Assembly (NCBI GenBank): GCA_964652835.1
Contig: CAZZCB010000001.1
Coordinates: forward strand, 26,935 to 90,934
Length of the DNA stretch: 64,000 nt
Direction of reading: 5' to 3'
Origin: an uncultured Candidatus Saccharibacteria bacterium
GTDB taxonomy: Bacteria > Patescibacteriota > Minisyncoccia > Phycocordibacterales > CSBR16-119
The notes below the pieces were generated by a model. The model had not been told where the DNA came from. It ran no database searches and saw nothing but the letters and a program-made list of their open reading frames with translations. Numbering within the stretch: the first letter of the stretch is position 1; each line of letters starts with the position of its first letter. The translations under genes and the position numbers were made by a program. Shown one piece after another: positions 5,498 to 50,928 of this stretch.

Positions 5498-5599
5498 CTA
5501 TGTGGCATGTGGCTCGCCTGGTGATTACCTTAACGGGGTATTCCAGTGCGGGTCACGGGTTCATCGATCATGTGCGTGCCACTACCAGGCACACGATCT

Positions 5600-6106
5600 T
5601 CAGCATCGCAAGTAGCGCGGCATCGTCCAGGCAGGATGGCGCCGCAGCAGGGGCACCATCTGAGGCGCATGCTTTGCGACACCCACGAGGGGCAGGCCGG
5701 CGGCGGTCTTCTTGTTGTCCAGGCTGTAGCGGTCCTTCATGATCATGTTGTAGCACGATCGTTCGGGTTCCGTTGCGGCCAAGGGCAGCGCATTGCTCAC
5801 GGTCATCAGATCCAGGGCGGGGTTCAAGATGTAACGGTTGCCGTCCGTGTGATCGGATCGGTGCACGCCGGTCTCCTGGCCGTTGGCTTGCCCTGGGGCG
5901 GAATACATGATGTTGATGTCGATGTCGTTGCCCTGGTCCACCACCATGTCGGTGATGTCCTCGGCGGCCTGCTGGTCAGCGGTGATGCTCTTGATGAATT
6001 CATTATGGTCAGCCTTCGGCCCCGTATCGGGTGCCGCGAAGGCGGTCGGGCTGAACGCCACACAGGCGAACAGTCCCATGGAAAGGAACAATGCTTTCGT
6101 TTTCAT
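5600..6106 (-). CDS. secreted protein of unknown function, high-GC island (about 60% GC)
   Basis: Signal peptide [24 protein letters not shown]. Codon usage is strikingly GC-rich relative to neighbours. No Shine-Dalgarno. Confidence 0.6.
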
Positions 6107-6156
6107 GCGAAAAGGATTTGGTTACAACCAACGAAATTGCTGGTCGTTTGTTTGGC

Positions 6157-6184
6157 AGTATAGCATATAATAAAAACTTGTCAA
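6157..6184 (-). promoter_or_regulatory. sigma70-type promoter (TTGACA-16-TGcTATACT) for island gene 5600..6106
   Basis: Minus strand reads gcTTGACAagtttttattatatgcTATACT. Same architecture as 5 other promoters in the window. Confidence 0.6.
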
Positions 6185-33895: not shown

Positions 33896-34594
33896 TTAGA
33901 AGTTTACGGCTGCTTGGAAAGCAAGCGCTTGGCGACGGTAGTCGCCGAGACCCTGACTTTCCAGCAAATTGTTCATCGCCTGATCCCAGGCATAGGTTAC
34001 GCCGAGTGAGTAACGCTCACAGGTGAAGTAACTGATCTGTGCATACTGACCCTGGGCAATGGAAGATATTCCAATACGACCTTCGAAGCTCTTGAATCGA
34101 GCTCCAACATGTTGGTCATAGAAGATACCTCGACCACCAACCTCAGCGTGCACGCCGGCGAACATCGACAGGTTGTCATCGCAGGAGCGGAATTCCGCAC
34201 GAGCGATGATCGTTCCACCGATAGCTCCGTGACCACGGTACTGGAAGGTTGGCCCAACAGCAAACTCGATAAGACGATGATTGCCTTGGACTCGACCTTT
34301 CACAAGCGGGCTCACAGAGCTCACTGCGGTATTGTACCGCGAGTAGTTCTGGGCACTGCCTCCAACGAAGAAGCTTTCCTTCTTACTCAGCGAGAAGAAG
34401 GCTTCTCCACCAATATGGTGGAACTGGTTGCCCAGCTCCGGAGTGGAAACCTCCCCGAAATCCGGGATGGTGTAGTCGCCCATCAACACGGACGCTTGTC
34501 CGTGATAGGACTGGGCGTTAACAACGCCAACACACACAGAGGTCACCAGCATGATAACCAGAGCGATGAGGTGAAAATTGATCTTGTTTTTCAT
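33896..34594 (-). CDS. outer-membrane-type beta-barrel protein (OmpA/OmpW-like), high-GC island
   Basis: Start set at the internal Met of ORF 33896..34711. Signal peptide MKNKINFHLIALVIMLVTSVCVGVVNAQ. Alternating hydrophobic beta-strand pattern. Aromatic-rich C-terminus ending in Phe (…AFQAAVNF). About 55% GC. No SD. Confidence 0.55.
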   Translation of the reverse strand: MKNKINFHLIALVIMLVTSVCVGVVNAQSYHGQASVLMGDYTIPDFGEVSTPELGNQFHHIGGEAFFSLSKKESFFVGGSAQNYSRYNTAVSSVSPLVKGRVQGNHRLIEFAVGPTFQYRGHGAIGGTIIARAEFRSCDDNLSMFAGVHAEVGGRGIFYDQHVGARFKSFEGRIGISSIAQGQYAQISYFTCERYSLGVTYAWDQAMNNLLESQGLGDYRRQALAFQAAVNF

Positions 34595-34654
34595 GGGAAA
34601 GGGCTGTGTTTTACCTGGTTTTACGCAGGTTGGTTGGTTTCTAGGTTCTTGTAT

Positions 34655-34683
34655 ATAATAGCATAAATAGATTATTTTGTCAA
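34655..34683 (-). promoter_or_regulatory. sigma70-type promoter (TTGACA-17-TGcTATTAT) for the OMP gene
   Basis: Minus strand reads acTTGACAaaataatctatttatgcTATTAT. Confidence 0.6.
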
Positions 34684-34735
34684 GTATATTTAGACAAGGA
34701 AAAAGGCCCATCTACATTGCGTAAACGGGCCTTCG

Positions 34736-38996: not shown

Positions 38997-40913
38997 TTAG
39001 CGACGCTTGGGTCCACTGCTGGAACCACCGCTTTGCATCGCATTGCGAGCAGGTGCGGAATTGGTCCGCATTTGCTGCCGAGCAGGTTGCGACGGCCTGA
39101 CTGCCACTGGCTTAGTAGCCACTCGGGTGTTACCGCTAACAGTACGCACCTGATGATGTGTCCGAGAAGGACTAGCAGAAGGTCGCACACCTCCAGTGTT
39201 TCGGCTGACAGTTCCACCGTTCCGTGAAGGAGTGGTGTTACCGTAAACTTGACCCCGGTTTCCGTTCGCTCGAGGCTGTTTAGGAGGATTAACGCTCGGC
39301 TTCGTACCATAACCTGAAGGCTTGGTAGTCTGAGCAGTAGATCCACCATTCACACGCCCTTGGGGAGCGGTTTGCGGCTTTGCGGCAGGCTTAGTGCTTA
39401 CACCGGATGAACCTTGACGGTTCTCGGCGAAAGTTTCAGACGTGCCGCGTCCATTGGCACCAGCTGGTGCCTGCAGACCACCCCTGGGAGCCATAGGCTC
39501 TTTGCTGGGAGGAGCAGCTACCATATCCGGGGTTGAAGGAGGAAGCTTGATCGTGGGTTTGTTACCCTCGACAACCTTTCTATCAGCCACCGAACCGGTA
39601 GGGATGGAAGAAGGCAGAACCAAGGCTGGGACTTTACGCTCCGTCGTTACCGACGTTGCGAGTCCAACTTTAGTTTGACCTTCAGCCGAAGCTTTGGTCG
39701 ACTGAGTGAATGAGGTGGAGTTTCCGCCAAGCTCTGCCGAAGCAAGCTCAACATACTCCTCTTCAACGTTTCCTCCTGAGGTTACGGCAGATTTGCATCC
39801 GCCACAGCCGTCGTTGTAAACGTCCCCGTAGTAATTGTTGCTGACTGTGTAGCCAACACCACTACCAACCCAGTCGATCCCGACATGGCTGTAGCCATTC
39901 CACACAGAGGAACCACCGCTTACCCAACGATTAGGCATACAGCCGTAATAAGGAATGGATGGCATACAGCCGAAACCGTTACCAAATCCACCGCCGAAGC
40001 CGAAACCAACAGAGAAGCCTCCGCCGAAGCCACCTATTCCCCAGTTGTTACCGAAGCCTCCACCCCACATTGGTTGTGAGTAAAAGGGTTGCAACATCAC
40101 GGGATAGCCGTAGGCACCAGCACTACCGAGTGGCGCGCCGTTGCTGGCGTGCCGGTAGTAGTTCTGGCTATATCCAGCATAGTCTCCCATGCCGAACTTA
40201 TAACCATTGCGCTTGTTCGAAGCGGTAGGCTCCCACTCACCCTCAGCGTTCTTGCTGAAGATGAATGTCGGGTCCTTTTTGCGGTCACCGGCTTTGATAG
40301 CCTTAGGCGCATCAGGATCTTCGGTCTCCCACTTGTCTCCGTTCTTCTGATAGAAACGGTCTTCATGGAAGAACGACTTACCTTCCTCGACCCACTCGAT
40401 GTTGGCAACTTTCGTCGCGTCATCGCTGGTCTCGGAAAACCCTTTCTTTGCTTCAGCCAGAACATCTGGCATTTGCCCAGAAGGGGTGTACACTTTGATG
40501 ATCCGGCTCGTAGATCCCTCGTAAAGGGGTACTAAGAATTTCGGATCATCCACATCCACACCCAAACTGGGTGGAATGTAGAAAGGTACGGACAAGTCCG
40601 ACACCCACACAGAAAGCGTGGTATCAATGAGACGGTATTCGTTGGCGCCGTCCAAGAGGATGAAGTCACCCTCAAGATTCACAGGCTTAACGTGGCTCGG
40701 ATATCCGAACAGGACATCTTCCCACATCTCATCGTTCAGCATCTCCGGGGAGATACCTCCGGGAACCACCGAATTGGTGGCCTCCCATCCACTTGAGGCC
40801 AAAACGACCTCCTTTACAGCCTTCACCCACTCTTGCGAATGAGCGGAGGTTTGCGCGAGCAATGGCTGAGCCATTGCGCACACGAAGAGAATGACAAAGA
40901 TCAGATTTTTCAT
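38997..40913 (-). CDS. secreted Gly-rich protein (GFGGG/GNxW repeats, basic S/T/P-rich tail), high-GC island (about 60% GC)
   Basis: Signal peptide MKNLIFVILFVCAMAQPLLAQ. Central WGGGFGNNWGIGGFGGGFSVGFGFGGGFGNGFGC block. No SD. Confidence 0.6.
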   Translation of the reverse strand: MKNLIFVILFVCAMAQPLLAQTSAHSQEWVKAVKEVVLASSGWEATNSVVPGGISPEMLNDEMWEDVLFGYPSHVKPVNLEGDFILLDGANEYRLIDTTLSVWVSDLSVPFYIPPSLGVDVDDPKFLVPLYEGSTSRIIKVYTPSGQMPDVLAEAKKGFSETSDDATKVANIEWVEEGKSFFHEDRFYQKNGDKWETEDPDAPKAIKAGDRKKDPTFIFSKNAEGEWEPTASNKRNGYKFGMGDYAGYSQNYYRHASNGAPLGSAGAYGYPVMLQPFYSQPMWGGGFGNNWGIGGFGGGFSVGFGFGGGFGNGFGCMPSIPYYGCMPNRWVSGGSSVWNGYSHVGIDWVGSGVGYTVSNNYYGDVYNDGCGGCKSAVTSGGNVEEEYVELASAELGGNSTSFTQSTKASAEGQTKVGLATSVTTERKVPALVLPSSIPTGSVADRKVVEGNKPTIKLPPSTPDMVAAPPSKEPMAPRGGLQAPAGANGRGTSETFAENRQGSSGVSTKPAAKPQTAPQGRVNGGSTAQTTKPSGYGTKPSVNPPKQPRANGNRGQVYGNTTPSRNGGTVSRNTGGVRPSASPSRTHHQVRTVSGNTRVATKPVAVRPSQPARQQMRTNSAPARNAMQSGGSSSGPKRR

Positions 40914-42848: not shown

Positions 42849-43133
42849 TGTTTTTATTGAAAAAGATCTACAAACCTCCAAATAATCCTTTTTCTTACAA
42901 AGTAAGAAAAGTAATAAAATCTTAAAGGATAGCCGCAGTAACTCCGCTTGATGCGGTAACCATTGCGTCCTTTTTGAAGTTATAGAGACAGAGCCTGATT
43001 ACTTAGAGGTTTCTAAACCCTTTTCAATGAGACAGATAATATATCACGGACAAAAATATTGTAAAGTACATTTATAAGGACGCACCGTGCATACGTTCCT
43101 TACAAAATAAAAAAAGACTAAAACGTCTTTGTT

Positions 43134-43163
43134 TTGAACAAAAAATCACAAAAGTGATATAAT
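43134..43163 (+). promoter_or_regulatory. candidate promoter (TTGAAC-18-TATAAT) for ruvB
   Basis: ttgaac...aaagtgatataatg about 55 nt upstream of the ruvB ATG. Confidence 0.35.
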
Positions 43164-43216
43164 GTTTTTAAATCTTTAATTTACTTACCTGAGTAGTTTA
43201 GCATATAAAAAATAAA

Positions 43217-44209
43217 ATGTCAAGTGATACAAATACAAATGAAGAAATAAAGAGCGACAGCTTTTTAGACAATACTTTAAGACCTCGCACTTGGGACGAG
43301 TATATTGGTCAGGAAAAAATTAAACAAAACCTAAAAATACTTATCCAAGCAGCAGAAGAAAGGGGTCATGTCCCAGAACATATTTTATTCCACGGACCAC
43401 CCGGACTTGGTAAAACAACTCTTGCACACCTGATCGCTCGTGAAGCAGGGAAACAAATGAAAATAACATCTGGGCCTGCGATAGAAAAAGTTGGGGACCT
43501 CGCGAGCGTTCTAACAAATCTTTCTCCTGGAGATATTTTATTCATCGACGAGATTCACCGACTAAACAAAATGGTTGAAGAAGTTCTCTACCCTGCGATG
43601 GAGTCAGGAGTGCTCGATATCATCATCGGTAAGGGTCCTTCTGCTAGAACTATCCAGCTCGACCTACCACCTTTCACGCTCATCGCAGCGACGACTCGTC
43701 CAGCGCTCATCTCTTCCCCACTTCGTTCACGTTTCTCAGGCGGAGTTCACAGACTTGAATTTTATACAGATAACGAAATGAAAGAGATTGTGAAACGAGC
43801 GAGTCTTCTTTTGGGAACAGAAGCGGACGAAGGAGCAGTGGAAGAAATAGCAAAGAGAGCGCGGTTCACACCAAGAACTTCTAACTACTTTTTAAAACGC
43901 GCTCGCGACTACGCTCAAATAAATAAAGAAAAGTTAACAAAAGAAAATGTCCGTAAAGCGCTAGAGCTTTTAGGTGTTGACGATATCGGACTTTTTGAAA
44001 CGGACAGAAATCTTTTAAGGACAATAATCGAAAAGTTCGGCGGCGGACCCGTAGGACTAAACACTCTCGCCGCAGCAACAAGTGAAGAAGAGGCAACAAT
44101 AGAAGAAGTTATCGAACCATATCTTTTAAGACTAGGACTTCTCGAAAGAACACCTCGCGGACGAACAGCGACAGAAAAAGCATATCAGCACCTGGGGATT
44201 AGGCAGTAG
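43217..44209 (+). CDS. ruvB: Holliday junction branch-migration helicase RuvB
   Basis: GPPGLGKTTLA Walker A. RuvB sensor motifs. Confidence 0.92.
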   Translation: MSSDTNTNEEIKSDSFLDNTLRPRTWDEYIGQEKIKQNLKILIQAAEERGHVPEHILFHGPPGLGKTTLAHLIAREAGKQMKITSGPAIEKVGDLASVLTNLSPGDILFIDEIHRLNKMVEEVLYPAMESGVLDIIIGKGPSARTIQLDLPPFTLIAATTRPALISSPLRSRFSGGVHRLEFYTDNEMKEIVKRASLLLGTEADEGAVEEIAKRARFTPRTSNYFLKRARDYAQINKEKLTKENVRKALELLGVDDIGLFETDRNLLRTIIEKFGGGPVGLNTLAAATSEEEATIEEVIEPYLLRLGLLERTPRGRTATEKAYQHLGIRQ

Positions 44210-44225
44210 GCATCAGGCTTTAGCT

Positions 44226-44585
44226 ATGAAAACTTTTAAAGACTTAATTGTATGGCAGAAATCAATGGATCTTGTAAGGCTTGTTTATAAAACAACAAAA
44301 TCATTTCCTGCTGAAGAAAAATTTTCATTAACTAGTCAAATTCAAAGATCTGCAATATCGATACCTTCGAATATTGCAGAAGGAAAATTACGTAGGACAA
44401 ACAAAAATTTTATTCAGTTTTTATATATTTCTCTCGGCTCTTGTGCCGAACTAGAAACACAGATTATAGTCGCCAAAGATATCGGATATATAGAACCTGA
44501 TGATTTTGAAAAAATACAGACCGATATAAACGAGATTATGAAAATGATTACTGGATTAATTAAAAAACTAATGCCTAGCGCCTAA
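44226..44585 (+). CDS. four-helix-bundle protein (23S rRNA intervening-sequence protein family)
   Basis: LIVWQKSMDLV...IPSNIAEG...LYISLGSCAELETQ family pattern. Confidence 0.65.
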   Translation: MKTFKDLIVWQKSMDLVRLVYKTTKSFPAEEKFSLTSQIQRSAISIPSNIAEGKLRRTNKNFIQFLYISLGSCAELETQIIVAKDIGYIEPDDFEKIQTDINEIMKMITGLIKKLMPSA

Positions 44586-44603
44586 GGCCTAGTAACTATA
44601 CAA

Positions 44604-45125
44604 ATGGGATCATCACATAAAAAACAAGGAAAAATTGCTGACAACAATGCGAAAAAATCTCAAGTTTTTTCTAAACTTGTCAGACTTATACAAGCAGAAT
44701 CTAAAAAATCAGGAGGTGATCAAAACTCTCCAGGTCTTCGTGTTGCTATCGAACGAGCAAGGAAAGAAAATATGCCAAGCGACACTCTCGAAAGAGCTAT
44801 TAAAAAAGGTTCTGAACCGGGGGTTGATTTACAGCCTGTTTTATTCGAGGCTTACGGCCCAGCGGGAATAGGAATTATCATCACTGGGCTTACAGACAAC
44901 AACAATAGAACGAGTCAGGCAGTAAAACATATTCTTTCAAAAAACGGATCATCTCTTGGGGGCGCCGGATCTGTGGCTTGGAATTTTTCTAAAAATGCCG
45001 AAGGCGAGTGGACTCCAAATACTACAATGAGCGCAAGTGAAGAAGATTTAGAAAAACTTTCTATCATCATAGAAGCTCTTGAAGAAAACGAAGACATCCA
45101 AGATGTTTATACAAATGCAGAATAA
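44604..45125 (+). CDS. YebC/PmpR-family protein, shortened (173 aa, lacks middle domain)
   Basis: KSGGDQNSPGLRVAIERARKENMPSDTLERAIKKG and C-terminal EDIQDVYTN match YebC. About 70 residues shorter than canonical YebC. Confidence 0.65.
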   Translation: MGSSHKKQGKIADNNAKKSQVFSKLVRLIQAESKKSGGDQNSPGLRVAIERARKENMPSDTLERAIKKGSEPGVDLQPVLFEAYGPAGIGIIITGLTDNNNRTSQAVKHILSKNGSSLGGAGSVAWNFSKNAEGEWTPNTTMSASEEDLEKLSIIIEALEENEDIQDVYTNAE

Positions 45126-45147
45126 ATAAATTTTTCAATAAGAAAAA

Positions 45148-45169
45148 GCTCCGGACACGTGTCCGGAGC
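45148..45169. terminator. bidirectional terminator
   Basis: gctccggacacgtgtccggagc perfect hairpin. Confidence 0.65.
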
Positions 45170-45186
45170 AAAAACATGGAATATTT

Positions 45187-45792
45187 TCACGATGCAATGA
45201 ATGCATCGACGGCCTTAAGCTTCGCAATTTCCACTTGCGAAACCGGCCCCACCAACTTCCCCGAAGTAAGTGTGCGCATTTTACCAAAACGACCAGTGTG
45301 AACGAACCTCTCTTCGTGACAGCGCAGAACATAACCGTCCCAATTGCCATCTTTAATGAGGTTCCAGTCGCGCTCAGTAATGAACACGCTCTCAATCGGA
45401 CCGTACAGCCACGCGATAGATATTTCAGGAAGTGGCGTTATCGGCCAAACTTTCCGAAAACCTGTCACGATAAATCCGTTCTCGGTCTTGAATCGGTTTC
45501 GGAAAGATCGAGCAGGAGCCATGTAGTCATCTTTACTATAGGGTATGGCTACCCACATAGATGCAACAGCGGCAACGTCCTCAAAATACTTACTACTTAA
45601 GACAACCATGTCGACCGGCACAGGGTGCTGGCAAGGAAGAAGTGCGACCCTCTCCTTAAACCATTCCTTGAGATCCATGGACCAATAACTGAGTGTCTCG
45701 GACAAGTTATCGGCGATTTCGAACTTTTTTTCGACATACATAAAAACTAAGACAATAATTGCAACGATGCAGATGATGGTCAAGGTTGTCAT
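45187..45792 (-). CDS. membrane-anchored hypothetical protein (moderately high GC); start set at MTTLTIICIV
   Basis: N-terminal TM anchor. ORF track gives 45187..45846 with an 18-codon N-extension. Confidence 0.45.
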   Translation of the reverse strand: MTTLTIICIVAIIVLVFMYVEKKFEIADNLSETLSYWSMDLKEWFKERVALLPCQHPVPVDMVVLSSKYFEDVAAVASMWVAIPYSKDDYMAPARSFRNRFKTENGFIVTGFRKVWPITPLPEISIAWLYGPIESVFITERDWNLIKDGNWDGYVLRCHEERFVHTGRFGKMRTLTSGKLVGPVSQVEIAKLKAVDAFIAS

Positions 45793-45868
45793 GTTTGCGG
45801 GGGTTGGTTGGTTTTTGTTTAAGGAACAGTGGCTAAATATAAACATATATTTAGCTATTAGTCAATAC

Positions 45869-45916
45869 TTCCACTCTTTGAAAACTCGAGCGAACTCAAG
45901 TCCTCAAAAGTGGAGC
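45869..45916. repeat. 48-bp palindromic intergenic element, copy 1 (CCACTCTTTGAAAA-N19-TCAAAAGTGGAG)
   Basis: Direct comparison with copies at 46632 and 47851. Confidence 0.8.
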
Positions 45917-45938
45917 CCTGTAAAAACAGAGCTACGCT

Positions 45939-46619
45939 TTATTGTTTTTTCAAATTTCTCAAATACCCTCCGTCTATTGGTATAACCATATTACTAATCA
46001 CGTTTTGATTCACTAACCAAAAAATAGATTCAGCCACTTCTTCCGGGTTTAAAATTCTGCTCCCTGGTGAATCTTTTAAAACCTGATTAAATTTTTTACC
46101 AAAACCTTGTCTTGAAAGACCTGTGTCAACAAGTCCTGGAGCAACGCAATTAATAAATACGTCTTTTATTTTCATTAATTCATTTTCAAGTTTTTCATGT
46201 ACATCTTTTTCAAAAGAATAGTCTTTATTATCAGGAAGAAAAGTATACAGAGATCCAACCGCGCAAACATGACTTACGTTATTTGTTTTCAGCAATTCTT
46301 TTATTATTTGAACCCCGCCCAATTTTATTTCTTTATATAGTTTTTTATATTCTTTTGTTTTATCTTGAGAAAAAATTCCAGCGCAATGTATTATTTTTGA
46401 AATATTATATTTTTCTAATTTTTTAACCAACTCTTCTCTTTCTTTGTTTTTAGAAATATCGCATTGTATAAATTCAATATTTCCAAACACAGAAGCAAGG
46501 TCTCCTTTGTTTTCATTTCTACCAACAACAATAACCTCATTATCTTTTGATAATATTTTTGCTGTTTGGAAACCTATACCAGACGTTCCTCCTAAAATTA
46601 GTATTTTATTATTTTTCAT
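45939..46619 (-). CDS. SDR-family short-chain dehydrogenase/reductase
   Basis: ILILGGTSGIGFQTA (TGxxxGxG) and downstream Y/K catalytic region. Low GC, unlike flanking genes. Confidence 0.8.
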   Translation of the reverse strand: MKNNKILILGGTSGIGFQTAKILSKDNEVIVVGRNENKGDLASVFGNIEFIQCDISKNKEREELVKKLEKYNISKIIHCAGIFSQDKTKEYKKLYKEIKLGGVQIIKELLKTNNVSHVCAVGSLYTFLPDNKDYSFEKDVHEKLENELMKIKDVFINCVAPGLVDTGLSRQGFGKKFNQVLKDSPGSRILNPEEVAESIFWLVNQNVISNMVIPIDGGYLRNLKKQ

Positions 46620-46631
46620 ATATTTAAGTTA

Positions 46632-46679
46632 TTCCAATCTTTGAAAAATCAAATTTCTTTAATTTCTCAAAATTGGAGC
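46632..46679. repeat. 48-bp palindromic intergenic element, copy 2 (CCAATCTTTGAAAA-N19-TCAAAATTGGAG), fused to a GC hairpin 46673-46697
   Basis: Compensatory CCACT-to-CCAAT and AGTGG-to-ATTGG changes relative to copy 1. Confidence 0.8.
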
Positions 46680-46723
46680 CGACGAGTTTTCGTCGGCTCG
46701 AACTTCTTAGGCGCCGCTTAGTC

Positions 46724-47776
46724 CTACGAATCGTAGTGCCAAGCAGCGTCGAACACGGGTATCAAGAAATGTTTGCCAGACATCTTGTGCATCCGCGCCA
46801 ATTTCACAGCAACCGCAAACCCAGCCCTTCCTGTGCGACCAAACTCCGACAACGCTTCGTGGTGAAAGTCGTCCCACTTCACAACCCACTCACTTTTATC
46901 TGCCGGCTTAAAGCCAACAGATTCAATGAAGAGTTGATCTACGTAGTCGCTTGTCACCAATCCAACACCGTCGAGTAGTGGTATTGCCACATCAAGTGCG
47001 GGCATGGAAAAGGTGGTGTGAGAAGGTGATGATCCGGGTAAGTCATGTCGCAAAAACATGTCTGGGTTGATTCCAAAAATCCTTTCGTACTTCCCAGGAG
47101 GATAGTATTTGCGGTGAGCATTGCCAGATGCCACAGATTCAAACCCGAACACTTTCGATTGGGGAAAGAGTGACTTGAACCCGGTTGCCATGGGAAGTGC
47201 CGTGGTGCCATTACCCAAAGGGCAAATGACCACATCCGGTCGAATACCGGCTTCGACGACTTCTTCGACGAAGGGACGGAACGCATTAGTCGCAGCGTTG
47301 TTAATCGAAATTCCTCTCCCGAATATGTCACCCATCGCGTGGTTGATATATTTAGTTTCGGGATGTTTAGCAAGAAAAGCCTTGATAAACTCTGGGAATC
47401 CGTTCACGTACGCTTCGGCTGGCGTGAGGATAAGCTCCCCGCCAGCTTCTTCGATCGCCCGCTCACGAGCCTTCTCACCACCAGCAGGCACTGCGATCTT
47501 GATATTGTAACCAAGAGCAGTGGCAACTGCGGCTGCGGCACGTCCGCCACTGCCCGAAGTGGTTTCCAGAAGCGTGTCACCTGGCTTGATGAGGCCGAGG
47601 CACTCTTTCAAGTAGATGAGCTTCAGGAACACTCGGGAATAGTGGCACTCACCGTACGGCAACTTGTAGTCAAGTTTGAAGTGGTAAGTGTTACCCTCAA
47701 ACTCAATGGTTTCGATTGGCGAATTGCGGACTTCAGACATCATGCGTGTGTAGAGGTTTTTGCGCTGAGTGTTCAT
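46724..47776 (-). CDS. cysteine-synthase-like (PLP fold-type II) protein lacking the Schiff-base lysine, paralog 1
   Basis: Aligns along its length to CysK (TSGSGGRAAAAVATALGY, GEKARERAIE, LGNGTT). The SVKxR lysine motif is replaced by ECHYSR. About 52% GC. Confidence 0.7.
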   Translation of the reverse strand: MNTQRKNLYTRMMSEVRNSPIETIEFEGNTYHFKLDYKLPYGECHYSRVFLKLIYLKECLGLIKPGDTLLETTSGSGGRAAAAVATALGYNIKIAVPAGGEKARERAIEEAGGELILTPAEAYVNGFPEFIKAFLAKHPETKYINHAMGDIFGRGISINNAATNAFRPFVEEVVEAGIRPDVVICPLGNGTTALPMATGFKSLFPQSKVFGFESVASGNAHRKYYPPGKYERIFGINPDMFLRHDLPGSSPSHTTFSMPALDVAIPLLDGVGLVTSDYVDQLFIESVGFKPADKSEWVVKWDDFHHEALSEFGRTGRAGFAVAVKLARMHKMSGKHFLIPVFDAAWHYDS

Positions 47777-47790
47777 GATGGTTTATGTTA

Positions 47791-47809
47791 TGTGTTAGGC
47801 CTAAACACA
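47791..47809 (-). promoter_or_regulatory. 19-nt palindrome TGTGTTTAGGCCTAACACA, 14 nt upstream of the paralog-1 ATG
   Basis: Identical element with identical spacing upstream of paralog 2. Confidence 0.6.
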
Positions 47810-47850
47810 CAACATAAATTAATTTATATTTTTAAAAGAACTAAATATAT

Positions 47851-47897
47851 CTCCACTCTTTGAAAATTCCACCGAGGTGAAATTCTCAAAAGTAGAG
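47851..47897. repeat. palindromic intergenic element, copy 3 (CCACTCTTTGAAAA-N19-TCAAAAGTAGAG)
   Basis: The G-to-A change in the right arm gives a G-U wobble only if the element is transcribed from the minus strand. Confidence 0.8.
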
Positions 47898-48002
47898 ACA
47901 AGACCTTAGCCTTGTCTACTTTGGGTTGTTCGTCTCACGACGATCTTCAGTTTTAGGGGACCTTAGCTCCCTAACCAGAGGTTAGTCTGTCTGTGACTTT
48001 GA

Positions 48003-49103
48003 CTAGCTTTGTTTGGTTTTTTCCGTCTGCTCCCACCAGCTGTCGTAGCGGTTCGCGTGATCGTAGGCGACTATCAGGTAGTTTTGACCCTCGGTTTCCC
48101 GTGCCAAATTTTCTGCCACCTTATAGCCAGCCCAGGTCGTTCGACCGAAGGTCTTGAGCTCATTTGGGATGCCGGTGTCGAACACTATGGCATCTTTTGG
48201 GGGCTCTTGACCCGTGATCTCGGTGTACTCCCTGAGAGTGCTTGAATCCCAGACCAACTTCTCTGCTGCGAGAAGTGGCAAGGAAGCCTCCAGAGCGGGC
48301 ACATCGAAATGCACTCGGTAGCTCGTACCTGGCAACCTATGCCTTGAGAACTCTCCGCGTTGCGACAGGTTCATCCCGAACTCTTCTTCGAAGCGTCCAG
48401 GATAAAGTTTGTCGTACACGAAACCACTCTCAAAACTTTCGGCTCCAACGATCTTGACCGAAGGACACAACTCCTTGATCCTGCGACCATATCCGTTCTG
48501 GGTTGTCCCATTACCGGATATTGCCACAAAGACATCAGGGGTCACGTTCTCCATGTCGCGCAACGCTTCGTCTACCACGTTGGCACAGGCGGCCATCGCC
48601 TCTTCGTTCACCATGGGCACTTTCCCTTCCAGGACCATGCTGTGGTTAAAGAAGAAACAATCCCTATTTTTCGCAAGGAACTTCCTTGAGAAAACGGGTG
48701 CGCCGTCAACGTAAGCCAGAGAGTCAGTGAGGTGCAGTTGGTGTGAAGGAATCCACTCCAAGATTGCACGCTCACGAGCTTTTTCACCATCGGCAGGCAT
48801 CGCAACCTCGCACACATACCCGAGTTGGGCAGCGAGCGAAGCCATTGCGATGCCAGCGCTTCCACTGGTGAAATCGTAGACTCTTTGACCCGGCTTGATC
48901 AAACCCTTCTCTTCGAAGTGCTTGAACAAAGCCAAGTAGATACGGACATAGTGGTTGAAACCAGGAGCATTTTCACACTCGAGCTTCACAAACAACTTGT
49001 TCCCGTTGGGGAGCACGTTATTCATTTCCACTAATCGCGTGTTAGAGGTTTTCACCTCGAGGCGAGAGTAGAGTTGGGCGCGCTGAGTGTTCATGGGGTT
49101 CAT
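48003..49103 (-). CDS. cysteine-synthase-like protein lacking the Schiff-base lysine, paralog 2
   Basis: Same fold (TSGSAGIAMASLAAQLGY, GEKARERAILE, SGNGTT). SVKxR replaced by FNHYVR. Start set at ATG 49103 (MNPMNTQR). The ORF track starts at an upstream GTG (49136) inside the leader palindrome. Confidence 0.7.
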   Translation of the reverse strand: MNPMNTQRAQLYSRLEVKTSNTRLVEMNNVLPNGNKLFVKLECENAPGFNHYVRIYLALFKHFEEKGLIKPGQRVYDFTSGSAGIAMASLAAQLGYVCEVAMPADGEKARERAILEWIPSHQLHLTDSLAYVDGAPVFSRKFLAKNRDCFFFNHSMVLEGKVPMVNEEAMAACANVVDEALRDMENVTPDVFVAISGNGTTQNGYGRRIKELCPSVKIVGAESFESGFVYDKLYPGRFEEEFGMNLSQRGEFSRHRLPGTSYRVHFDVPALEASLPLLAAEKLVWDSSTLREYTEITGQEPPKDAIVFDTGIPNELKTFGRTTWAGYKVAENLARETEGQNYLIVAYDHANRYDSWWEQTEKTKQS

Positions 49104-49116
49104 GGGGTTAGGGTTA

Positions 49117-49135
49117 TGTGTTAGGCCTAAACACA
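49117..49135 (-). promoter_or_regulatory. 19-nt palindrome TGTGTTTAGGCCTAACACA, 14 nt upstream of the paralog-2 ATG
   Basis: See 47791..47809. Confidence 0.6.
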
Positions 49136-49188
49136 CAACCGAAACCTTTTCTGAAACTGAATCTTTTCGATGAACAACTTTCTGGACA

Positions 49189-49218
49189 TATCATAGCAGG
49201 TTTTGTCAATCTTGTCAA
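49189..49218 (-). promoter_or_regulatory. sigma70 promoter (tandem TTGACA TTGACA -18- TGcTATGAT) for the cysK-like pair
   Basis: Minus strand reads TTGACAagaTTGACAaaacctgcTATGAT. Confidence 0.55.
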
Positions 49219-49328
49219 ATTACTTTTTATATTTTGTTATATTTTTTCTAAAAAAACGTTGTGAATCAATGTTTAAAAACTGTTGATAACCTCTTTACAA
49301 CAATGAGTATTTTTAGTAGCATTTAGAC

Positions 49329-50090
49329 ATGGAAGATAAATTAAAAAGGCTAGGACTTACAGATAATGAAATAAAGGTGTATTTGTGTGTTCTTGAAAAC
49401 ACTAAAATAACCCCAGCAATGATTGCTCGAAAAACAGGCGTAACCCGCCCTACCTCCTACGGAGTAGGTAAATCTCTGGTAGAAAAAGGCTTTATTTTAG
49501 CCGACGAGCTCAGTCCAACGCTGTATTTCGTCGCCCTGCCCCCAGAAAACATAATAAAGTCTGTAAAAAAAGAAAGGCTTGAAATAGAAGAAAAGATAAA
49601 AATAGCAGAAGAGCTGAGTGCGGAGCTTTTATCTGTGCCAAAATCTAAAAACTATTCTGTGCCAAAAGTCAGATTTATAGACGAACACAGCTTTAAAGAC
49701 TTTATGTATGAAAGAGCTCCCGTTTGGAACAGCTCCGGACTTGCCGGCGACGGCACATGGTGGGGTTTCCAAGATCATGGACTTATAGACTATATTCCAG
49801 ACTGGTTTAAATGGTATTTTGATTTTTCTGCAGGGAAAATTAAATCAAACCTCATAACAAACGCCGAAGAAAGTGTGATGATTGGCGACAAGCTGCACGA
49901 GAAATATGAAAGACGGGCTAAATATTGGGCTGGTGCGGATAAAATAAAAGTTACGTATTCTGTTTTAGGTGACTTTGTTTTTATTGCAAACACACAAAGT
50001 AAGCCACACTATGTGGTGGAAATCCACGACGCTGTGATAGCTGAAAATATGCGACAAATCTTTAAGGGCTTTTGGGAGATGTTGCCTTAA
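49329..50090 (+). CDS. TrmB-family HTH transcriptional regulator
   Basis: N-terminal LGLTDNEIKVYLCVLENTKITPAMIARKTGVTRPTSYGVGKSLVEKGFI winged-helix region typical of TrmB. Divergent from the cysK-like pair. Confidence 0.55.
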   Translation: MEDKLKRLGLTDNEIKVYLCVLENTKITPAMIARKTGVTRPTSYGVGKSLVEKGFILADELSPTLYFVALPPENIIKSVKKERLEIEEKIKIAEELSAELLSVPKSKNYSVPKVRFIDEHSFKDFMYERAPVWNSSGLAGDGTWWGFQDHGLIDYIPDWFKWYFDFSAGKIKSNLITNAEESVMIGDKLHEKYERRAKYWAGADKIKVTYSVLGDFVFIANTQSKPHYVVEIHDAVIAENMRQIFKGFWEMLP

Positions 50091-50106
50091 GGGGTAAAAT
50101 ATAAAA

Positions 50107-50928
50107 ATGAATAATCTTTTTCTTATACAAATATTATCTTCTTTTTTAATTGGCGGAATTTTAATATCAGCCCTAACTTTCTGGTCTGAAAAACTAAATA
50201 GTAAATTGTCGGGGATCGTCGTCTCATTTCCAACAACTGTTGTTCTAGGTTTTATATTTTTATCTTGGGTTTCATCCCCAGAAATAATTCCCGAGGTTGC
50301 ACCTACCGCTATTGCAGTTTTAGGGGCCACAACACTGTTTACAAACTTTTATTCAAAAACTTCTATAAAGATTAGCAGGATTGTTAAACAAAAAATATTT
50401 CAAATAGCACTATCGTTTCTGATAAGTAGCGCCATGTGGATCATTATCTCGTCTATTATTGTGTCGCTTAAAATAAGTCTACCTATTTCGATTTTTGTTT
50501 ATTTTATACTAATGACAATAAGTCATTTGTGGTTTAAAGAAGGAAACAAAAATAAAACAAAAGATCTTATTAAGATTAAAAAATACAACTTGTCACAAAA
50601 AATATTTCGCGGAATATTTGTTGGAATAATCGTTGTTCTTATAACAATATTAAGTAAAACTTTAACCTCTTTTTGGGGTAGTGTTTTTTCTGTTTTCCCG
50701 GCAGCTTTTTCGTCGGTTCTAATGATCTACCACTTTAATTATGGAACACAAAAACTATCTCTTGTTTCTCGAAATATGCCGATTGGATCAATATCTATAT
50801 TAATATATATTTTAGGCTGTTATTTTACTTTTCCAATTATGGGTGTGCTTTTGAGCACACTAATTTCTTTATTATTTAGTCTAATTACTTCAGTCTTTTT
50901 ATTTAAAATAAAAACTCACCGAGGGTAA
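50107..50928 (+). CDS. polytopic membrane protein (about 8 TM), unknown function
   Basis: ORF track; hydrophobic throughout. Confidence 0.5.
   Translation: MNNLFLIQILSSFLIGGILISALTFWSEKLNSKLSGIVVSFPTTVVLGFIFLSWVSSPEIIPEVAPTAIAVLGATTLFTNFYSKTSIKISRIVKQKIFQIALSFLISSAMWIIISSIIVSLKISLPISIFVYFILMTISHLWFKEGNKNKTKDLIKIKKYNLSQKIFRGIFVGIIVVLITILSKTLTSFWGSVFSVFPAAFSSVLMIYHFNYGTQKLSLVSRNMPIGSISILIYILGCYFTFPIMGVLLSTLISLLFSLITSVFLFKIKTHRG

Follow-up and report, generated by a model that had tools for sequence, protein, structure and literature searches.

A tyrosine in place of the Schiff-base lysine marks a clade of cysteine-synthase-like proteins

Among catalytic residues, the Schiff-base lysine is taken to define the enzymes that depend on pyridoxal 5'-phosphate (PLP), and homologs that lack it are usually dismissed as dead. 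We analyzed a 64,000-nucleotide stretch of contig CAZZCB010000001.1 from an uncultured Candidatus Saccharibacteria bacterium (hereafter the window), in which two neighboring genes, paralog 1 and paralog 2, encode cysteine-synthase-like proteins of fold type II with a tyrosine at the lysine position. The two genes lie between a short-chain dehydrogenase/reductase (SDR) gene and a divergent gene for a TrmB-family regulator, and each is preceded by a hairpin in its leader (Table 1).

Both open reading frames (ORFs) were found intact on the minus strand at the coordinates given in a first-pass annotation, which had been made from the sequence alone. The ORF listed for paralog 2 (48003-49136, 377 aa) begins with a GTG at 49136 on that strand; because this codon falls within the conserved leader hairpin, translation most likely starts at ATG 49103 or ATG 49094. 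The two proteins are members of the fold-type II family PF00291 (PALP) of Pfam, scoring 73.7 bits (paralog 1) and 81.8 bits (paralog 2), both above the gathering cutoff of 35. They share 39% identity over their full length by BLASTP and 41% in a MAFFT codon alignment; the two are thus diverged, as had been proposed, and the earlier estimate of about 35% was slightly low. An end-to-end alignment with CysK had also been claimed. At the sequence level this did not hold, as the match to the PF00291 and CysK models covers only the N-terminal two thirds of both paralogs. At the structural level it did: an AlphaFold2 (AF2) model of paralog 1 (pLDDT 93.9, pTM 0.91) had CysK, OASS, and CBS as its best matches in the PDB by Foldseek, with a probability of 1.00 and a template modeling (TM) score of 0.65-0.73 (about 0.70). 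The model and its matches predict a two-domain alpha/beta fold of the tryptophan-synthase-beta type. The motifs TSG(S)xG, GEKARE, and GNGTT are present in the paralogs, and the region that reads G-x-S-S-G-A in CysK is altered as described, with GRTGRAG and GRTTWAG in its place. Paralog 1 is 100% identical to P0205, which comes from an NCBI contig of a metagenome-assembled genome (MAG), and both window proteins also occur in independent Logan assemblies, on contigs with the same maximum of 3583 bp.

Table 1. Genes and sequence features around the two paralogs (positions in the window)
Feature	Position	Strand	Description
Paralog 1	46724..47776	-	Intact ORF, 350 aa; fold-type II (PALP) without the lysine, C-H-Y-[SA]-R subtype
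Paralog 2	48003..49103	-	366 aa from ATG 49103, or 363 aa from ATG 49094; PALP without the lysine, N-H-Y-V-R subtype
SDR, recurrent downstream partner	45939..46619	-	226 aa, YxxxK present; PF00106, PF13561
TrmB-family regulator, divergent	49329..50090	+	253 aa; winged helix-turn-helix, coiled-coil helix, PLD/Nuc-like effector-type domain
Leader hairpin, paralog 1	47783..47817	-	17-bp stem with a one-nucleotide bulge; center 23 nt before the ATG
Leader hairpin, paralog 2	49106..49146	-	Core 49112-49140; center 22 nt before ATG 49103
Sigma-70-type promoter, paralog 2	49190..49218	-	Predicted; TTGACA-17-TATGAT, extended -10 TG; 11/12 matches
Operator-like inverted repeat	49280..49303	.	TTGTTGTAAAGAGGTTATCAACAG (TTGTTG...CAACA), beside the TrmB start; putative TrmB site
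Intrinsic-terminator-like hairpin between paralog 2 and paralog 1	47896..47917	-	Within 47852-48024
Terminator-like hairpin after paralog 1	46669..46699	-	GAGCCGACG-AAAAC-TCGTCGGCTC with a T-rich tail; unreported by the consensus scan

Alignment to solved CysK chains by phmmer placed GECHYSR of paralog 1 and GFNHYVR of paralog 2 on the CysK segment GGSVKDR. In both paralogs the column of the Schiff-base lysine holds a tyrosine with a histidine before it, in agreement with the first-pass annotation; the codons concerned are 47641-47639 for Tyr46 of paralog 1 and 48950-48948 for the corresponding tyrosine of paralog 2. The active-site lysine that characterizes PF00291 enzymes is likewise a tyrosine in all 129 representatives of the clade described below. 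A joint alignment of relatives had Tyr 150 times, Lys 25 times, His twice, and Phe once in this column, and the clade consensus around it is P-[TSG]-G-S-H-Y-D-R. Among 86 diverse members, whose mean column identity is 19%, this tyrosine is the sole invariant column.

Six columns split the Tyr clade from the Lys-bearing enzymes: Y46 (Lys in the latter), L88 (Lys), Y123 (Gly), H146 (Gln), N189 (Thr), and Y342 (Ala/Pro). For the roles of the residues in CysK we assumed those of the Salmonella OASS structure. H146 is the equivalent of Gln142, and N189 is the second residue of the G-T-G-G-T phosphate loop (Thr177). Their conservation in the clade is 99% for H146, 97% for N189, 92% for Y123, and 95% for Y342. 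The part of the pocket that holds the substrate carboxylate in CysK, formed by the loop T-S-G-N-T-G and Gln142, is changed in both elements, as the loop reads T-S-G-S-[GA]-G in the window proteins and the glutamine is the near-invariant histidine just mentioned. Several other features are kept. The G-x-G framework of the phosphate loop and its final Ser/Thr persist as G-N-G-[TS]-[ST], an [ST][ST] pair persists in GR[TS][ST] at the position that contacts the pyridine N1 in CysK, and the HxLxG motif and the TSGxxG loop are retained, the latter with S, N, or T in place of its Asn. Retention of the phosphate loop and of the N1 Ser/Thr would be compatible with PLP binding.

Compared with CysK, CysM, and CBS, the clade thus has the same two-domain fold (Foldseek TM about 0.70) and the same order of motifs, namely the KxE strand, S-x-[K/Y]-D-R, TSGxxG, G-x-G-x-[TS], HxLxG, the N1 Ser/Thr, and a C-terminal D...RY. 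It differs from CysK by an identity of only about 20%, by the changes Lys to Tyr, Val40 to His, Gln142 to His, and Thr177 to Asn, by Asn71 to Ser in the window proteins, and by two insertions in the clade proteins, one around RHxLPGTS and one before GRTT.

A lysine from a neighboring position that takes over the Schiff-base site had been named as the observation that would overturn the claim of lysine loss. We looked for such a compensating lysine among the clade columns and, at the sequence level, found no newly conserved one. The only well-conserved lysines of the clade are K34 (88%) and K201 (52%), and because both match their conservation in the Lys-bearing enzymes, neither is a newly gained replacement.

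Some near-relatives vary at the Schiff-base position. P0144 and P0185 read SHHDR and also carry H146, and P0177 reads SHFDR. Four others, P0134, P0169, P0170, and P0182, retain the lysine as SHKDR, with Gln and Thr at the other hallmark positions. In their motifs, these proteins look like intermediates or side branches in the order of substitutions. One of them, P0182 (548 aa), is a CysK-like protein with a fused N-terminal adenine/hypoxanthine phosphoribosyltransferase domain (NF009211, 153.6 bits).

With paralog 2 as the query, a word-indexed search returned about 27 close clusters, each of which has [SN]HYxR; the similarity then fell sharply, and true CysO-dependent CysM proteins (SVKDR) came next. 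An exhaustive phmmer search with paralog 1 against 1.84 billion representatives gave 1177 matches at E ≤ 1e-3, including 135 at E ≤ 1e-10, and the 150 best matches contained at least 129 full-length Tyr representatives (50%-identity clusters). In a neighbor-joining tree of Tyr and Lys proteins, from which the motif columns were excluded, one side of a single bipartition holds all 129 Tyr proteins and zero Lys proteins. The change from Lys to Tyr marks one monophyletic clade and is not peculiar to the window pair. The hosts are bacteria of the candidate phyla radiation (CPR), labeled Saccharibacteria, Paceibacterota, Moranii-, Nomura-, and Taylorbacteria, and DPANN archaea (Woese- and Pacearchaeota); a few further members come from MAGs labeled Alphaproteobacteria or Methanosarcinales.

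The source annotations of these proteins are generic: 'cysteine synthase', 'PLP-dependent lyase/thiolase', 'pyridoxal-phosphate dependent enzyme', or 'hypothetical'. The best NCBIfam models for the window proteins are cysK, cysM, and cysKM (TIGR01139, TIGR01138, TIGR01136), with 48-80 bits against cutoffs of 344-394, and other clade members score 50-123 bits with the same models. The SbnA and BhcB models are also among the weak matches, far below cutoff. Membership in a curated family was rejected, since NCBIfam yields only sub-threshold matches to CysK, CysM, CBS, and SbnA. Neither phmmer nor Foldseek found a PDB relative from the Tyr clade; all their matches were canonical enzymes with the lysine, at about 20% identity. 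In searches of the literature, no account of the clade was found. The Tyr clade is an uncharacterized branch of the fold-type II superfamily that is mis-annotated as cysteine synthase. A role in a defense system was considered and set aside, as PADLOC gave no match for either paralog or the TrmB-family protein and a chance-level match only for the SDR.

Additional regions occur in some members. P0012, P0013, P0016, P0045, P0047, and the ORF of locus L022 share an N-terminal extension of 60-100 aa with Y-R-D-x-L-A, to which no family was assigned. The C-terminus of P0047 (about 410-599; HxHxP...SxxD) was considered as a JAMM/MPN domain that would link the protein to CysO-type sulfur carriers; the Pfam match to Prok-JAB reached only E = 0.25, and this candidate was not used.

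Genomic neighborhoods were compared in 43 loci, 39 of them non-redundant, that carry a clade gene (PALP-Tyr). The alignment of the 86 diverse members was too divergent for the locus scan, and a narrower alignment was used with the single pattern GEKARExAI, giving 33 loci; because the scan relied on that pattern alone, it under-samples subgroups without GEKARExAI. Comparison of paralog 2 with its ortholog in locus L021 (94% amino acid identity) gave a ratio of nonsynonymous to synonymous substitution rates (dN/dS) of 0.063, and paralog 1 gave 0.07-0.13 against the orthologs in L015, L018, and L012. Both paralogs are intact, under purifying selection, and not decaying. The first-pass annotation had suggested a selected non-canonical function from the lysine loss common to the two paralogs. 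The selection is borne out by the invariant tyrosine, the clean bipartition, and the dN/dS of 0.06-0.13, and the conservation reaches far past the pair.

We found NAD(P)H oxidoreductases near the PALP-Tyr gene in 15 of the 39 non-redundant loci. They belong to four unrelated families: SDR, an SDR-like protein of 216 aa, a ProC/F420_oxidored-like protein, and RibD_C. The SDR of the window, which matches only generic SDR models in NCBIfam, has 88% nucleotide identity to that of L021, and the same SDR family occurs in six loci. Two fusions of PALP-Tyr with a ProC-like domain were found, in P0045 and in L022. In L020 (6361-10043), one neighbor of the PALP-Tyr gene is a RibD_C-type NADPH reductase and the other is a GTP cyclohydrolase II that carries a fused methyltransferase domain; this one locus hints at a connection with pyrimidine, pterin, or flavin-type intermediates.

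The divergent neighbor has the N-terminal winged helix-turn-helix of TrmB and a C-terminal fold of the TrmB effector-domain type. It scores 18-31 bits with the NCBIfam TrmB models, against cutoffs of 500-650; with about 253 aa it has the size of TrmBL2 and, compared with the 338-aa TrmB, is without the second sugar-binding subdomain. In most CPR loci the TrmB gene is divergent and lies 60-400 bp upstream of PALP-Tyr. It is missing from 18 of the 43 loci, and in three archaeal loci an Lrp/AsnC regulator occupies the same place, so the PALP-Tyr gene looks like a regulated target and not like an obligate TrmB partner. In the CPR loci L005/L006 (4752-9008), a PALP-Tyr gene without a TrmB neighbor is transcribed away from a suf operon for Fe-S clusters (SufB, SufD, cysteine desulfurase, NifU, SufC). 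This single case would fit a sulfur- or cysteine-related role.

The predicted promoter of paralog 2 is the best promoter-like site in 45000-50200 and is conserved in L012, L018, and L021. Palindromes related to the inverted repeat beside the TrmB start stand at the same place elsewhere, as TGTTGA-N7-TCAACA in CPR and TTGTC-N-GACAA in archaea. This repeat is the probable TrmB operator and a likelier one than the palindrome in the leaders. Since the terminator-like hairpin at 47917-47896 parts the paralogs, the two appear to be transcribed separately, each behind a leader hairpin of its own.

The two leaders contain an identical 27-nt core, GTTGTGTGTTTAGGCCTAACACATAAC (47787-47813 and 49113-49139), although the proteins behind them are only about 40% identical. 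The hairpin also stands upstream of the PALP-Tyr ATG in L001, L002, L012, L014-L018, L021, L024, L026, L030, and L034. Fifteen distinct leaders fall into four sequence classes with one architecture, a 14-bp stem with a one-nucleotide bulge: 4-5 bp are followed by the bulge, which is in the 5' arm, and then by at least 9 bp. The identity of the bulged nucleotide varies across the 15 leaders and its presence is constant. Pairing holds in 218 of 219 stem cells, and double compensatory changes were found at 9 of 14 positions. G.U pairs occupy 10 cells and A.C only 1, and this 10:1 ratio indicates that the structure forms only in the sense strand. The center of the hairpin is 22-24 nt before the ATG in three classes and 38-42 nt in the fourth, in which a CTCCG...CGGAG pairing surrounds the hairpin and would mask a Shine-Dalgarno-like GGAG. 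A scan for the architecture over 610 kb on both strands showed that it is essentially confined to PALP-Tyr leaders, with only two matches in the 64-kb window, those in front of the two paralogs. Rfam 15 gave no relevant match in 47700-49400 at the gathering threshold or at E ≤ 10.

These features suggest that the leader hairpin is probably a cis-regulatory element of the mRNA, bound by a protein and acting on translation, and they make it a candidate for a new regulatory RNA motif in bacteria whose regulation is almost unknown. The palindrome of the leader was also considered as a DNA operator of TrmB and this appears less likely: it keeps a constant distance to the ATG and not to the promoter, its bulge is conserved and one-sided, the ratio of G.U to A.C is 10:1, it is absent from L010, L011, and L013 despite their TrmB genes, and a separate palindrome stands at the TrmB gene. 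As the center of the hairpin is self-complementary, it may also have a role at the DNA level.

The first-pass annotation had listed a pseudoenzyme or regulator, a binding partner, and a different chemistry as possible consequences of the lysine loss; the evidence favors a different chemistry. The pocket residues H146, N189, Y123, and Y342 were replaced and then frozen with the phosphate loop and the N1 Ser/Thr kept, and four unrelated NAD(P)H oxidoreductase families adjoin the gene, the ProC-like one being fused to it twice; both observations argue for this option. The local regulators belong to different families (TrmB, Lrp/AsnC), which argues for a regulated enzyme gene and against an obligate partner of TrmB. 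Taking together the lysine loss, the retained features of the cofactor site, the purifying selection, the dedicated regulation, and the linkage to reductases, we favor an active enzyme without an internal aldimine, possibly with non-covalently held PLP or pyridoxamine 5'-phosphate (PMP), that works with a reductase, and we give this reading a probability of about 0.5. In such an enzyme, PLP or PMP would be held non-covalently in the pocket, and Tyr46, His45, and His146 would serve as acid/base groups for proton transfer. The adjacent or fused NAD(P)H oxidoreductase would act on the C=N or C=O product of the enzyme, or on its substrate, with an imine, enamine, or keto product being reduced. Expression would be controlled at two levels, by the divergent dedicated TrmB-family regulator and by the bulged leader hairpin near the start codon.

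The sugar 3-dehydratases ColD, E1, and SpnQ are fold-type I enzymes in which the catalytic lysine is replaced by histidine and no internal aldimine is formed; PMP forms a Schiff base with the keto substrate, the histidine acts as acid/base, and a partner reductase finishes the pathway (PMC8987622). The Tyr clade resembles ColD and E1 as a B6-fold family with its catalytic lysine replaced, which is a functional analogy only. It differs from them in its fold type (II, not I) and in the replacing residue (Tyr, not His), and the substrates of those enzymes are nucleoside diphosphate (NDP)-4-keto-sugars. Closer in fold are the pairs SbnA with SbnB and BhcB with BhcD, in which a CysK-like or dehydratase-like fold-type II enzyme works together with an NAD(P)-dependent dehydrogenase or imine reductase encoded beside it. 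In contrast to the clade, SbnA and BhcB keep the lysine, and their partners belong to the ornithine cyclodeaminase/mu-crystallin family and not to the SDR, ProC-like, or RibD_C families.

Several points weigh against an active enzyme of this kind. We know of no fold-type II enzyme that works without the lysine, which in canonical enzymes has the further tasks of transimination and proton transfer. Where CysK has an Asn in contact with O3', both window proteins have Ser and the clade as a whole has S, N, or T, and only the retained motifs suggest that the clade proteins may bind B6. No reductase is nearby in 24 of the 39 loci, and the reductases that occur are generic and matched no curated equivalog. 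Neither the archaeal loci nor L010, L011, and L013 have the leader hairpin, which is therefore not essential to the system. P0081 carries a C-terminal extension of 430 aa (residues about 325-757) without a Pfam match, which might be a signaling module and would then fit a role as a sensor.

An extension of this sort would suit a ligand-sensing pseudoenzyme, whose pocket would bind a metabolite or the tail of a partner and so modulate the TrmB-family regulator or another protein. The absence of the catalytic lysine itself fits this explanation, as does the tight and recurrent linkage to a dedicated TrmB subfamily with a conserved C-terminus (...FKGxWE[KTM][IL]). Fold-type II proteins also serve sensing or allostery in the partnerships of CysK with CymR, CysE, and CdiA and of the plant TSB-like protein with TSA, and here the link is to a transcription-factor gene. 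In the CymR-CysK, CysE-CysK, and CdiA-CysK pairs, however, the lysine and PLP are kept and the partner genes are not divergently paired. The plant TSB-like protein is a precedent for a fold-type II pseudoenzyme that acts as an allosteric partner, and it was inactivated by other substitutions (PMC12727527). We consider a sensing pseudoenzyme unlikely, as TrmB is missing from 18 of the 43 loci, some of which have Lrp/AsnC instead, the adjacent and fused NAD(P)H reductases indicate metabolism, and pocket residues that were replaced and then frozen beside an intact phosphate loop are more typical of retooled catalysis.

Retooled catalysis might also have dispensed with B6. The phosphate loop would then bind another phosphorylated substrate or cofactor, with His45, Tyr46, and His146 as general acid/base groups or metal ligands. 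The concerted changes in the pocket (K to Y, Q to H, T to N, and two further Tyr) are in line with such an enzyme, and near-invariant histidines (H45, H146, and H244, the last in 107 of 127 members) could form a metal site; His244, however, is also present in CysK. Neighbors that act on phosphorylated or nucleotide compounds can be cited as well, namely GTP cyclohydrolase II and RibD_C in L020, a histidine phosphatase in L033, an HD-domain protein in L028, and a phosphoribosyltransferase in L008, but each of them stands in one locus (or one duplicated pair), whereas the reductases recur. Against such an enzyme stand the Ser/Thr pair kept at the N1 contact and the retained G-N-G-x-x loop, whose form is in keeping with PLP-phosphate loops, for example the G-N-A-G-N loop in threonine synthase. 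An enzyme without B6 is in our view somewhat harder still to credit than a sensing pseudoenzyme.

A more speculative combination, which we regard as improbable, is a carbonyl-cofactor chemistry in a PLP fold without the Schiff-base lysine. In its boldest form the cofactor would be a Tyr-derived quinone, independent of B6; in a milder form the clade would be the first fold-type II family that operates on non-covalent PMP or PLP through His/Tyr acid-base chemistry. Separately, the leader hairpin would be a new protein-bound cis-regulatory RNA, possibly bound by the enzyme itself. The quinone taken by itself would arise from oxidation of Tyr46 to a topaquinone-like group through a His-held metal, as a substitute for PLP in B6-auxotrophic symbionts. 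The invariant tyrosine stands exactly at the anchor of the cofactor aldehyde, conserved histidine is close in sequence, the hosts are CPR and DPANN organisms with reduced genomes, and most members have Asp next (H-Y-D), which recalls the topaquinone consensus N-Y-D/E. This idea is pure analogy, however, and we judge it very improbable: the window paralogs read Y-S-R and Y-V-R and not Y-D, the kept phosphate loop and N1 Ser/Thr argue for a B6-shaped ligand, and topaquinone formation needs O2, whereas many CPR and DPANN organisms are anaerobic. That the proteins are ordinary CysK/CysM enzymes with a Schiff base from another lysine, or that the tyrosine is an alignment artifact, has a negligible probability despite the cysK/cysM/cysKM models and 'cysteine synthase' labels they attract, given the scores far under the cutoffs, the agreement of three independent alignments on Tyr at the Lys column, the unremarkable conservation of K34 and K201, and the changes of Gln142 and of the Asn in the TSGNTG loop.

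If the proteins are active enzymes, the clade extends the chemistry of the fold-type II scaffold, as ColD and E1 did for fold type I, and would correct metabolic reconstructions of CPR and DPANN organisms that count clade genes as cysteine biosynthesis. The clade also provides defined residues that can be tested: Y46, H45, H146, N189, Y123, and Y342.

The tandem arrangement had been put forward as a notable unit. It did not recur, as the pair was found in the window only among the 43 loci, where two mutually replacing subtypes are stacked. L021, from a Candidatus Paceibacterota genome, shares synteny with window 43000-50090 (73-88% nucleotide identity) and carries the paralog-2 type only, with an unrelated 190-aa ORF at the position of paralog 1. 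L018 has the TrmB gene, leader, 3' region, and SDR in common with the window but carries the paralog-1 type. These arrangements indicate that two subtypes replace each other at one regulated locus. The segment 47852-48024, comprising the last codons of paralog 2 and the sequence downstream, contains two small hairpins and the terminator and is 82% identical to the regions 3' of the single PALP-Tyr genes in L018 and L021, despite the other subtype in L018. The two copies in the window would represent a stacking of subtypes that otherwise alternate at the TrmB...SDR locus, each with its own hairpin.

The base composition of the locus was also compared. The high-GC block and the adjoining TrmB-family gene pointed out by the first-pass annotation are both present; the GC content of the paralog genes is 0.51-0.52, against 0.39 in the flanks. 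Across loci L001-L042, the PALP-Tyr gene often departs in GC content from its host locus, upward in some cases and downward in others (0.52 vs 0.38 in L021, 0.39 vs 0.50 in L014), whereas the GC content of the neighboring TrmB gene usually agrees with the host. This discordance suggests repeated horizontal replacement of the coding region alone, between conserved leader and 3' sequences. The window contains three further GC-rich islands (5546-6163, 33896-34711, and 38997-40913), with a GC content of 0.48-0.55 against the window mean of 0.38, indicating that the genome has several GC-discordant insertions. These islands encode unrelated predicted secreted or low-complexity proteins, one of which has 638 aa, is rich in Gly, Ser, and Pro, and has a signal-peptide-like N-terminus.

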